The position numbers and the translations under genes are program-made. From assembly GCA_964016885.1 (NCBI GenBank), contig OZ024742.1, positions 149,668,001 to 149,732,000 of the forward strand: a stretch of 64,000 nucleotides of DNA, given 5' to 3'. Source of the stretch: Eledone cirrhosa (Eukaryota). The notes under the pieces are model-generated. The model did not search any database, was not told the DNA's origin, and saw nothing but the letters and a program-made list of their open reading frames with translations. Positions 22,127 to 27,584 of the stretch are shown piece after piece (position 1 is the first letter of the stretch; each line of letters begins with the position of its first letter).

Positions 22127-22555
22127 ATTAATGAACGTTATAAACATCTGGTTACCAATGACACATCAGATAACTGTGAACCCTCTCCTAATCACTTTAA
22201 CATTGAAAGAGATGTCACATATGGCCAGGATGATGAGGATGATGGTGATGATGAAAAGGAAGATGATGATGATGATGATTGTGATAGTGATTTTGAAGAA
22301 GGACCTGAAAAATCAGACACATCCCTGGAACTTCAGAACCACAGTGGAAATTCTGATGACTGTTTGAATCAGAAAACTAATTCTTTTTGTTCGCCTATTA
22401 AAAGAAATTTTGACTCATCCGCTGAGATTCGAGTAAGTACTGCAAATCCTCTGACAGATTCTGAGCGACTTTCAGCAAAAATACTGAATGATTTGTCTCC
22501 AAAGGTTGCCGCTGATGATTACACTTATAATACATCAAACATATCTGAAACAAGG
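22127..22555 (+). CDS. Candidate cassette exon, 143 aa, acidic/disordered (INERYKHL...GQDDEDDGDDEKEDDDDDDCDSDFEEGPEK...SNISETR); alternative in-frame donor after 22432
   Basis: taacAG acceptor at 22125-22126 with an in-frame TAA just upstream; no stops for 429 nt; donors GTAAGT at 22433 and GTGAGC at 22556, both phase 0. Confidence 0.65.
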
Positions 22556-24082
22556 GTGAGCAAATTAAAAAAATCTCATTTTTCTTACTACAACAGTATT
22601 AAATACTATCAAGTTATAATTTCTAAATACTTAGTTTTTAGTTTATATTTCATATTGTGCTGGGGTTGATTTAATCGACTTTCTGCTCTTCAAAATTGTT
22701 GACCTTGTGCCTAGATCAGAAACCATTATTTTTATTGTTAAGAATCAATTTCTCTTTATAAAATCTGATGATAATGACCACTATTTAAATTTTAGACAAA
22801 TAAAAGGCATGACATTCCCAAGAAGAATCATATTCCTAGCAGAGGTTCAAACTTGATGGATATACAAAAGAAAGTAAGCACTATCTATGTCAGAATTTAT
22901 TCTTTCAATTAGAACATTAGGTAAAGATTTATTAAAGCTCATTTCCCCTCGAGTCAACTTTGTCATGTGTTTCTTATGAAAGGTTGTTCTTCTTGCTTCA
23001 GACAACTGGATTTAAAGTTGAGTAGTTTCTATAAAAAAGGGGTATCCATATAACAAAAAATATTTGCTCCCATACTTTATACAAATATCTGATGTATGTA
23101 GAAAAATCTAGTTTATATCTGAGAAACTATCTATACAATTATATCTTATTCGCTCTCTCTCTGTTGGGGATTGTTAAGTTTTGGCATCTTGAAAGCTGAA
23201 TTCTCTAAGAAATATTTCAAAAGGAGCAAAATCAAATCCATTTTCCTTATGTTTAAATCATATATTAAAAGAAAGAAAGAGCAATAAATGATTAGTTTTC
23301 AAGTGATTGAGCCAAGAGATATCGTTATAAAATTATGTAATGGTATTTACAGTTGAAATAGTTTTACTTTTTTAACATTGTCCATCTATTTTTGGCTGGC
23401 AGTTAATATCCCACTGTTAGATTTATCTAAGAAACTTACAATGTTTATAGAACTTGCTATTTTTGTACTTTTTCCTAGCTATTGGCTCCACTTATTTCTT
23501 CTTTTGCTGCGTAATCTAAGACTATTTTCCTCTTTCCTTATCTCTTTCATAATGGAAAGAAGGAAAAATCTTAATATACACATATATCTTACTCATGCAT
23601 ATGCTTAGTTAGTGTTATGTTTATTCAAGTGTTAAATATGTAAGTCTTACACTTAGAATATCTACTGCTGTAGCTGCTACTGTCTTACTAAGTTCAAAAC
23701 CTTAATGTTGTCATTACGTTGTGCCTCTAAACAAGGTATCACATAATACCTACCTTAGTGCTGCTCACTAAAAAATAGATTCCACTTCATGGCTGGGTGA
23801 TTAACAGTAAGAAAGACATTCAGTCTGAAAGAGTATTTTCCCCACAATGCATATTCAAGTATCTGGAAAGAAAAGCTTGGGAAAAATGGACATAAAAGAA
23901 GAAAAAATAAAAGAGGGAAGGAAATGTATATTTGGGTTTTCTCACTTTTTAAAATAGTTTTCCCAACCCTATTAGAATATTAACTACTACAAGCTGTTAG
24001 ATATTGAACATTTAGAGCAGAGGTAGTTTTCTTTTACATTCTGTCTTGTCTTAACAAGAACAAAACATTTTTCCCCATACAG

Positions 24083-24148
24083 TTTGAAGCTGTGAGCAAA
24101 CAAGAGCCAAAGGAATTTGGTAAAAGAAATATAAACTTTCATGAAAAC
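24083..24148 (+). CDS. Candidate cassette exon, 22 aa (FEAVSKQEPKEFGKRNINFHEN), phase 0-0
   Basis: tttttccccatacAG acceptor, GTAAGC donor at 24149, 66 nt with no stop. Confidence 0.6.
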
Positions 24149-25759
24149 GTAAGCATCTCTGAGGAATTTATTGAATTTTATTTATCGTTAGGAAAATAAA
24201 TCTAAAAAACAAATCCACATCAGAATAATTTATTTAAATAGGTTTTAGTTTTGTAGAAATTGAAAAGCAAAAACATATTTTACATAAATTTGTAGTGTTT
24301 TTATTTATTATCTTATATATTATTAAAGAAAATACAAAACTAGATGCTTTATGATACTTCTTCATTTGGCACTCGAGGAGTTTAAATCCTATCTTGGTTG
24401 AATTTACTCTTCATGATTCTAGATTTAGTAAAATGTGAATCGATTTATGAATGTCACATCTACTAAGGTCTTGACTAAATATGGTTTTCATTTTAGCAGC
24501 AAAAAGGATCCCTTTTAGTTTTACATAGATTTAGCTGTTAGATTGAGCAGGTCATGTGGAAACATAGACAATCTCTTATCTCTTTTAACTTTATGCTAAT
24601 AATATACTGGAGTTGATCCAATTGGTTATATCTCAACTCTCTTATGAGATCCTGTTATCAGAGACAACATGACAAAGTAGACGTCACTGGTTGTTATAAT
24701 AATAATTTGGTATAAGGCTGATGGGTTGGCAGAGCTGTTAGAGTATCAGATAGAATGTGTTGCAGCATTTGTTCTGACTATCTGCACTCTGAGCTCAAAT
24801 CCTGCCAAGATCAACTTTGCCTTTCAGCTTAAATTGATAAAATAGTGTACCATTTCAGTAATGGGGTCAGTATAATCAGGTTTTCCTTCTCCCAAATTGC
24901 TGACCACGTGCCTATGTTAGAATTATGAATGTTTGGTAACCTCTACTGCAATTATAAGATTGCATTTTGAGCTAATGCTTTTACTTGATTCAATTTACCA
25001 GTTATGACATTAGAAAAAGTGCCCATAGGAAGTTGATCAACTAAGCATTTCTACTTTTCCGTGGGGGGGAGGGGGGTATCTTGCATTCGCTTCATGGTAC
25101 CTTAATTTACAGATGTCAACCAGCTCAATGAATCATTGTAAATACTTACAATTCTTTATTAAGTTAATTTTTGTTTCTTTCTTTATAAACTAAAATTAGC
25201 TCCATCTTTGATATAGAACAAGATAGGGCTAGTAGCGCGTGACATATTGTCAACCATATTTTGTTTTCTATCTTGTTAAAATGCTCAAGGCTGTTTTCTG
25301 AAGACTTCATACAAGTAATATGTGATGAATGTTCTAGCTTTACAGTGGATATGCAAGGAGGTTTATCCCTTAGCTTGTTTCACAGATTAAGAATAATGGA
25401 TAATTTCCGGCTGTCCTTGAGCTGATTGTTGCTGTTGGGGTGATCTGTGAAGCTTAGGCATGTTTTATTGATTTGATGGTTCAAATTCACTTGAAGAAGA
25501 AAGAGTGGATGAGGGATGGTGACATTCCTGGGGATATTTTTATGAAGCAAAGTGTACATGTAGTAGACATAATCTGTGTGAATTACCAAAACTGAGTTTC
25601 ATTTACATGCGGGATAAAAACTTCAGCATGCTATTATTGACTTATGTATGATGGCTCTATTTGTTCATGCTTGCCAATTCTAAATTGGACAAGGTGCTCC
25701 CATAGTTGGATGACTGGCATAAAAAAATATTTTCATTATTATTATTAAAATGATGGTGG

Positions 25760-26400
25760 TAAAATTGCTAGAGTGCCAGAGGAAATGTCTTTGTGTTTAG
25801 TTGTCCTTTTATATTCTGAATCTAAACTCTGCTAAGATAAACCTTGACATTCATCCTTTTGAGGTCAACAAAAATAGATGTACCAGTCAAATAATCTATT
25901 TATACTCTTCTCCAAGGTAATGTTTTGCCATTTTATGACAGAAATGCTAGGGCCAGTCTTAAAATTCCATGCAGCATTAGTTGGAGTTCAAATCCCACCA
26001 GTCTTGACTTTACCATTTATCTCCCTTGAATCAATTAAATTGATTACTTCATCCTCCAATATATGGTCTTGTGCGAATTTAGAAATTGTTATTACTATTA
26101 CTATTATATTTCTGGTATTTATTCTGACTCTTTACATTTTGAGTTCAAATCTGTCCAAGGTCAATTTTGCTTTTCATCCTTTTGACAGAATTGTTAGTGT
26201 TGTTTAAAATGTCCTGTAGTATTTATTCTGGCTTTTTAAATTCTGAGCTCAAATCTTGCTGACATTAGCTTTGTCTTTTTATCCTTCATAGGTTGATAAA
26301 ATAAAATACCAGTCAAGTACTGGAGTGAATTTAATCAACTTTCCTCTCCTCCCAAAATTGCTTACTTGTGCCTAATTTAGAAACTATTATCATTATTATT
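25760..26400 (+). mobile_element. Cluster of about 4 degenerate family A SINEs immediately upstream of the large exon
   Basis: Repeated gagttcaaatc / ttttcatcct / gataaaataaa..ccag blocks. Confidence 0.7.
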
Positions 26401-26513
26401 ATTTAATAAACCTTTTAGGTATTTTAGAAAATATTCTCTCTACCAATACTTTTGAAAACTGACATTATTATTATTATAATTGTATTATTCTATTGTTAAT
26501 TTACTTTTGCCAG

Positions 26514-27584
26514 GGCTTAATCTCTTCCCTTAAAGCTCCATCCCGACCTCTAATTAATGGAGTTTCAATAAAAGACTATAAATCTAAACTAGAAGGTTCT
26601 TTAAGTGATAACAGGCCTAAGTGTCAATCATTTCACAATAAACTCTCTACTGAAGATGCAGTTAAAAACACTCCCATTCTTGAAGATTTTGATAATTTTA
26701 AAGAAAAATATTTATCCCATAATAATATTAATAACAATAGTAATCATTATTATAACAATAAGAATAATATCATCAACAAAAACAACAATACTAACAACAA
26801 TTCTGGTCAGAGAATAACAGAAAGGACAGTAAAATTTTGCAATAAATGGCCACCAGAAAAAGTAACTAAAGTGCAAGATATTTCCAAACGATACAGTCCT
26901 GAAAGTAATTCTTCACTTCATTGTGAATCTGAAGAGAAGCCAGCTGTTCTTGTCAGTCAAAAAAGTGTTGTGAAAAGATGGCCTCATGCTCAAAATGCAC
27001 AGATTTCTATTACAAAGAGTCCTGAAAAGTTGACTAGCCTGTCATCAGGAGTAAATGGAAAAGAATCTATTACACAGCGAACAGATTCCAAAAGAGATGT
27101 TCGAGGGAGGTGGCCACCTGAAGTTGATCCTAAACAGACTGCTAGAGATAGCATCTCTTCTGCTTTAGCTCAGAAGATTTACAAGCCACCTTCAAAAAAT
27201 GATGTAACAGACGCATCTGGTCAAATTTTAAGAAAATACACAATTAGTGAAACTGCTTCTGCAAAAGTATTTTTACAAGCACCAAAAAATACTCAATTAA
27301 AAGAAGAAACTTTCATCTGTAAAATAATACCTAAATCTAAAGAAAACATTGGACAAAGTATTCCTCATGATTCATGCCATAATGGACACCTACAACAAAC
27401 TGAAAGTTCCCCACTTACTAACCTGCATGCTGTAAAAGAACAAAGTATTTCAAACTCATGGTTTGTTCCTACTACTAACCGGCACCAATGCAATGATGAT
27501 GATGATGATAGAGGTAATGAGGCAGCTGAAAGCCAGCCTGTATCATCTGCTCATTGTGTATTACATTTGCAATGTGGAAAGAAT
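26514..27584 (+). CDS. Large candidate cassette exon, 357 aa, S/K/N-rich low complexity with an Asn tract and three (K/R)W-P motifs, phase 0-0
   Basis: Lies within the 370-aa ORF 26493-27605, the longest non-microsatellite ORF in the window; tacttttgccAG acceptor at 26512-26513 and AAT|GTAAGT donor at 27585. Confidence 0.8.

Follow-up and report, generated by a model that had tools for sequence, protein, structure and literature searches.

Troponin I (TnI) in its canonical form is the small protein of the textbooks. The '52K' TnI of the Akazara scallop is a long form of about 290 amino acids (aa) with an E/R-rich N-terminal extension, and on gels scallop TnI appears much heavier than it is; the TnH of Lethocerus flight muscle is a TnI that owes its large mass to a Pro/Ala-rich, low-complexity extension of some length. 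Caldesmon combines a charged N terminus, a single-alpha-helix spacer and a disordered region with aromatic-ended actin-binding motifs. A caldesmon-like regulatory protein was reportedly found in catch-muscle thin filaments in 1990 and reportedly denied in 2013, and muscle of Pecten and Sepia is said to have yielded a caldesmon-like band of about 140 kDa. Here we describe an insert of four exons in the TnI gene of the octopus Eledone cirrhosa, a coding cassette that is very probably spliced into TnI. It lies in a window of 64,000 nucleotides (nt; NCBI GenBank assembly GCA_964016885.1, contig OZ024742.1, positions 149,668,001 to 149,732,000 of the forward strand); all positions below are those of the window, and features lie on its + strand unless marked otherwise.

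The old dispute over a caldesmon-like protein in molluscan muscle has been reviewed (PMC12040844), and caldesmon is described as a new vertebrate gene in the available sections of PMC5167519. Sea-urchin HpTnI, of about 52 kDa, has a long N-terminal extension and lacks the troponin C (TnC) switch region; according to the available part of PMC5341096, it was overlooked biochemically because of its size. A preprint available to us in part (bioRxiv 10.1101/2025.04.16.649135) defines a short F-actin-binding motif (SFM), VxxLxxxFE, which it places in ITPKA, Lifeact/ABP140, CEFIP, XIRP1/2, PPP1R9A/B, SHROOM3 and also caldesmon, whose SFM is displaced by calmodulin; troponin occurs nowhere in its main text. 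In our literature search, no account of a giant TnI from molluscs came up, and the available parts of PMC5963113 and PMC13762225 mention none; because most older molluscan troponin papers lie outside the coverage of that search, absence from print is not established.

An insert of four exons between troponin I exons

Exon mapping with Octopus sinensis isoform X1 as the query, across the window, 120 kb upstream and 80 kb downstream, places the TnI gene between window position -43023 and about +74990 in a genome of 3.0 Gb. The insert sits between a 60-aa exon for the E/K/R-rich helix (2053–2232; AG/GT flanks, phase 0-0; 50/60 residues identical to O. sinensis P0017) and a 16-aa TnI exon (31804–31851; 16/16 identical to both octopus models), and all of its exons are in phase 0. 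A preliminary description of this locus had placed three in-frame phase 0-0 exons here, and all three stand: exon A (22127–22555, 429 nt), which encodes an acidic stretch of 143 aa including a poly-Asp tract; exon B (24083–24148, 66 nt, 22 aa); and exon C (26514–27584, 1071 nt), which encodes 357 mostly disordered residues with an Asn tract. Each is a multiple of 3 nt, flanked by AG and GT and free of stops, and the poly-Asp, Asn and S/K/P-rich tracts named earlier are present in the translations. The exon sizes were right; the total of 522 aa was not, since tblastn located a fourth exon, A2 (22796–22873, 26 aa, phase 0-0), which brings the insert to 548 aa. The earlier focus was on the low-complexity tracts, and the most conserved motif of the insert starts in the overlooked exon A2.

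The closest database relatives are octopus proteins. Identities over aligned residues in the O. sinensis and Octopus bimaculoides models are 92/132 and 96/136 for exon A, 20/26 and 19/26 for A2, 20/22 and 19/22 for B, and 247/353 and 254/354 for C, that is 70–91%, against 80–100% for the adjoining TnI exons in those models. Downstream, the TnI chain continues with a 32-aa exon carrying the KRKGLGGL segment (47346–47441; 32/32 identical to P0017) and a phase 0-1 core exon at which the Pfam Troponin domain starts (62871–62991; 36/40 identical to P0017). Joined by script, the exons give a chain of 357 aa when the insert is left out and one of 905 aa (104.5 kDa) when it is included; small upstream exons may be missing from these chains, each of which stays open as far as the last exon. 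In the insert-bearing P0017, the Troponin domain PF00992 occupies residues 859–984 (118 bits, cut-off 26.2), and it was found in all 14 giant models of a further scan; by domain content, the insert-bearing protein is a TnI.

Two further features concern the 5′ part of the gene. An upstream TnI exon at window position -30689, in frame with the chain, has an apparent GC donor (a GC-AG intron). A candidate alternative first coding exon (13397–13402), recognized from the DNA alone as Met-Ser followed by a GTAAGT donor, could yield a short TnI of 182 aa, or a form of 730 aa with the insert.

The insert is conserved and predicted to be disordered

The open frame of the insert is retained at about 30% divergence, beyond what chance would give. 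When neutral change was simulated with substitutions only, up to the divergence seen against other octopuses (2000 runs per exon), exon C remained stop-free in 0/2000 runs and exon A in 91/2000. In the distant relative P0021 (40% identity), the Asn tract of exon C is missing; what remains conserved there is KWPPE, the V-D-S-KY motif, KSVVKxWP, RWPP and the KQTAR-AQK helix. The corresponding conserved core of exon C (26844–27182) contains KWPPE, VQDISKRY, KSVVKRWP, RWPPE and a predicted helix (residues 206–222), and includes a V..RW block common to bivalves.

The prediction that the insert is largely disordered is supported by FoldIndex, which is below 0 in 86% of its 51-residue windows, and by an AlphaFold2 model of exon C (from a 4-sequence alignment), in which mean pLDDT, the predicted local confidence, is 35.7 and 330/357 residues fall below 50. 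Pfam scans of the insert exons and of P0021 gave no meaningful match, and the ESM Atlas had no usable match for P0005 475–600 or P0040 180–460. A PDB sequence search with the insert profile returned two matches, at E 0.14 and 1.3, that we dismissed, and we rejected P0022 as a relative, a repeat protein that matched through 14 weak stretches.

Exon C is single copy in the genome. An origin by duplication from another gene of the same genome was discarded, there being no second copy; the remaining DNA matches are to Asn microsatellite. Contigs from three sequencing runs over 21500–28100 cross the introns and are DNA, and none of the joints listed for them links one exon to another.

Octopus gene models join the insert to troponin I

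A search with exon C among proteins of 626–2000 aa returned four clusters, all from Octopus, three of which carry PF00992. We examined 16 O. sinensis models (P0005 plus 15 proteins from its 17-member sister cluster), all chosen for containing exon C and, like those of O. bimaculoides, products of automated annotation. In every one of the 16, exon A follows the charged-helix exon and exon C leads into the TnI core; because they splice the insert to TnI exons on both sides, a separate protein made from the TnI promoter, one of the possibilities raised by the preliminary description, is unlikely. Its other proposal, a giant and largely disordered TnI splice form, gains support from these orthologous models in two other octopuses, in which the insert spliced into TnI is about 70% identical to that of the window. 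We infer splicing in E. cirrhosa from the gene models of other species. The small exons show six inclusion patterns among the 16 O. sinensis models.

Both Octopus species have a 35-aa exon between A and A2 that was not found in window positions 22556–26513; it would have been either lost in E. cirrhosa or gained in Octopus. The 240-nt intron between A and A2 (22556–22795) holds a piece of a high-copy repeat (about 22660–22730).

A corresponding insert in bivalve and chiton models

The preliminary description took the insert to be lineage-specific, a view that did not survive wider comparison. A search with the TnI core among proteins of 548–1747 aa, biased toward forms with the alternative exon described below, matched 38 clusters: 3 octopus, 32 bivalve, 1 chiton, 1 cestode and 1 Logan protein. 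The bivalves belong to Mytilus, Pecten, Argopecten, Ylistrum, Crassostrea/Magallana, Potamilus and Dreissena, and the chiton is Liolophura. In the molluscan proteins examined, the additional 300–530 residues are inserted at a matching site, between the charged helix and the EEEER-type exon; the chiton model is different at positions farther upstream. A pattern of the type LKDIQKKF occurs in 29/35 of the non-octopus matches and V..RW in 33/35. Three of the five best blocks from a cephalopod-free alignment match the window insert, scores that 0, 6 and 36 of 2000 shuffles equalled.

The best-kept block is L[KM]DIQKKFE. The 9-mer LKDIQKKFE is identical in O. sinensis, O. bimaculoides and Mytilus edulis, and its K, Q and F columns are invariant in 11/11 aligned sequences. 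In octopuses it spans the junction of exons A2 and B (QKK|FE); in the window, A2 ends in LMDIQKK (22853–22873) and B begins with FE (24083–24088). The Mytilus trossulus model P0033 loses sequence exactly after QKK and the oyster models P0056 and P0057 exactly before FE, and the intron position therefore appears to be common to these bivalves and octopuses. Finally, the Logan protein P0047, a 731-aa open reading frame (ORF) on a contig of 2607 nt, joins N terminus, insert and TnI core; the size of this ORF implies a spliced transcript, as judged from the ORF and not from the contig DNA.

On these comparisons, the insert is ancient and pan-molluscan in position and motifs, and the giant form is a real variant of TnI that is already in the databases under wrong names: most bivalve and chiton models are auto-named 'trichohyalin-like', and others 'myb-like' or 'H3K79 methyltransferase'.

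The cestode match, Spirometra P0045, is a 630-aa model whose long N-terminal region is unrelated and lacks the motifs, and the chiton models (Liolophura P0023 and P0065, 966–1085 aa) have further Trp-ending motifs at the N terminus.

A predicted actin-binding motif

The block L[KM]DIQKKFE places L, I, F and E at positions P1, P4, P8 and P9 of the SFM register, with L in place of V at P1; exon A2 supplies P1–P7 and exon B P8–P9. It has hydrophobic residues at P1 and P4 and an aromatic residue at P8, is conserved, and lies within a disordered region. VQDISKRY in the core of exon C is a second SFM-like motif. Across nine inserts, the relaxed pattern [VIL]xx[LIVM]xxx[FWY] has 16 matches against 4.0 expected (a number reached in 0/2000 randomizations).

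We also predicted complexes of a 35-residue motif peptide (O. bimaculoides residues 398–432) with an intact intronless octopus actin. The prediction scored 0.38, weakly, and gave no interface; the best of three controls scored 0.02. The score mark used for such complexes was reached by 51/78 solved complexes and 2/108 mismatched pairs and is uncalibrated for peptides and disordered chains; 5/78 solved complexes and all 4 passing mismatches reached it at 0.60 or under. Contact agreement between the actin–peptide runs was at least 48%, and partner pLDDT at least 49. The actin gene itself (376 aa; L030:1498–2625, - strand) lies at 145.35 Mb on the same contig; its product is 76–79% identical to conventional actin exons, and it is possibly a retrocopy under selection.

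From the SFM register, the enrichment of the relaxed pattern and the weak complex score, we consider it somewhat probable that the insert acts as a disordered actin tether through its SFM-like motifs. Several results weigh against this reading or against the steps that lead to it. Splicing rests on automated models and one Logan contig known by its ORF. In the comparison with bivalves, two of the five blocks had no match in the window insert, and with a profile of the whole insert the octopus sequence did not stand out from shuffles (21/250 scored as high), so that homology rests on the blocks; the Dreissena model and P0047 have no full motif, and the TnI-core search returned no gastropod or named squid TnI of such size. 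As to the motif, strict VxxLxxxFE matched 0/13 sequences, P1 being Leu; the relaxed pattern, picked after the sequences had been viewed and counted in bivalves that are related to one another, is not enriched in the window alone (2 against 0.68 expected, p 0.14). The weak actin–peptide score may stem from likeness to solved Lifeact/ITPKA–actin complexes, and the model combined a divergent intronless actin with an O. bimaculoides peptide and treated actin as a monomer rather than a filament.

A working model and its alternatives

We propose that the four exons are an old TnI cassette which, when spliced in, would produce a TnI of about 905 aa with a disordered insert separating the charged helix from the troponin core. 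The insert would serve as an additional actin tether, multivalent and of low affinity, through its short SFM-like motifs. The C-terminal TnI core would stay in troponin on the thin filament, the insert would reach additional actin subunits or an adjacent filament, and the charged helix would hold the N terminus at a distance, in a layout like that of caldesmon. In particular muscle types, such a tether would stabilize filaments, cross-link them or compete with myosin heads. Skipping exon B would remove P8–P9 and skipping A2 would remove P1–P7, so that splicing at QKK|FE would make or break the motif; as the motif is whole in 12/16 O. sinensis models, splicing would act as a switch.

The best-surviving alternative, which we regard as unlikely, accepts the cassette as part of TnI and assigns its motifs to other partners: the Trp-ending motifs would bind TnC or calmodulin, or the insert would be a phosphorylated spacer or scaffold for which actin is a minor partner. 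The V..RW motifs are the most widespread of all (33/35) and mostly lack a hydrophobic P1, caldesmon's SFM is itself displaced by calmodulin (bioRxiv 10.1101/2025.04.16.649135, available in part), and Ser makes up 11.9% of the insert. The best-kept block nonetheless fits the SFM register at P1, P4, P8 and P9, and both the enrichment of SFM-like matches across inserts and the actin-complex prediction, weak as it is, favour the tether.

Less probable still is that the insert works mainly in non-troponin products, as a separate cytoskeletal actin-binding protein from the TnI locus. This alternative turns on an exon at 58972–59122 (phase 0-1, in frame with the downstream exons; 43/50 residues identical to P0003). 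O. bimaculoides P0003 terminates with it and lacks a Troponin domain, and P0047, P0051 and P0055–P0057 combine it with the insert; the normal core exon is nevertheless present in all 16 O. sinensis models and most bivalve models, and the TnI-core search was biased toward forms with both insert and alternative exon. That the giant form arose from faulty annotation, or is a by-product made rarely, with exons that are not translated into stable protein, is very improbable: the models are automated and the biochemical work summarized in the available review section mentions no giant TnI, yet the frame has stayed open at about 30% divergence, motif and intron position are common to cephalopods and bivalves, and P0047 is an ORF at the level of a contig.

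Other features of the window

The alternative exon 58972–59122 is acidic and then reads 'KKLILSQRI..LP..LE'; in P0003 it is read on as a terminal exon. Its phase is that of 62871–62991, and its counterparts in Pecten, Mytilus, oyster and a clam-like protein (P0047, P0051, P0055–P0057) take the place of the first troponin-domain helix. The two exons are probably an old mutually exclusive pair, as judged by phase and position. We take the replaced helix to be the TnC-anchoring segment, which an exon swap would change.

A TnI intron holds a stop-free frame of 288 aa on the - strand (49047–49910, GC 50%), which presumably corresponds to the C-terminal end (Cys/His motif) of the reverse transcriptase of a long interspersed nuclear element. 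Just upstream of the charged-helix exon, about 130 nt are locally duplicated in inverted and direct orientation (about 1560–1810 and 1930–2030).

Comparison with known systems

The giant molluscan protein resembles the scallop long TnI, with which it shares the gene, a charged N-terminal extension and a PF00992 core; without the insert, the Eledone chain is 357 aa. It differs by a disordered, motif-bearing insert of 300–580 aa between the charged helix and the core. Sea-urchin HpTnI is likewise a TnI with an unusually long N-terminal extension, at about half the size of the giant form. Lethocerus TnH shares a long low-complexity addition, which is Pro/Ala-rich there; the octopus insert is rich in S, N, K and D and internal. 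Across octopods, bivalves and chitons, TnI models reach 700–1000 aa, against the small TnI of the textbooks.

Like the SFM proteins, giant TnI has short helical motifs in disordered regions, often repeated, with hydrophobic P1 and P4, aromatic P8 and Glu at P9; unlike them, it has Leu at P1, where the SFM has Val, and its motif is split by an intron. A short linear motif divided by a conserved intron illustrates cleanly how splicing can make a binding site.

Caldesmon membership was sought in 19 proteins, none of which matched PF02029 at E≤5 or 10; a PF02029 scan of the octopus's own genome had no match either, nor did the controls of that scan. In a word-limited search, a profile built from seven non-cephalopod inserts gave nine matches, all Mytilus or Mytilus-like fragments with no caldesmon among them. 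Vertebrate caldesmon (CALD1) nevertheless resembles giant TnI in layout and is listed as an SFM protein; the differences are that giant TnI is without PF02029 and that its caldesmon-like region is fused to a TnI core. A charged TnI of 85–105 kDa could run at the gel position of the reported band of about 140 kDa. Giant TnI is a testable candidate for the disputed 'caldesmon-like' protein. More speculatively, and with considerable doubt, giant TnI might be that protein of catch muscle, a molluscan troponin–caldesmon hybrid in which an intron within the motif, kept since the split of cephalopods and bivalves, switches the tether by muscle type. If the insert is an actin tether, it would bring a new component into catch and the regulation of molluscan thin filaments and, with caldesmon described as vertebrate-specific (PMC5167519, in the sections available), would offer a direct test of the dispute over a caldesmon-like protein.

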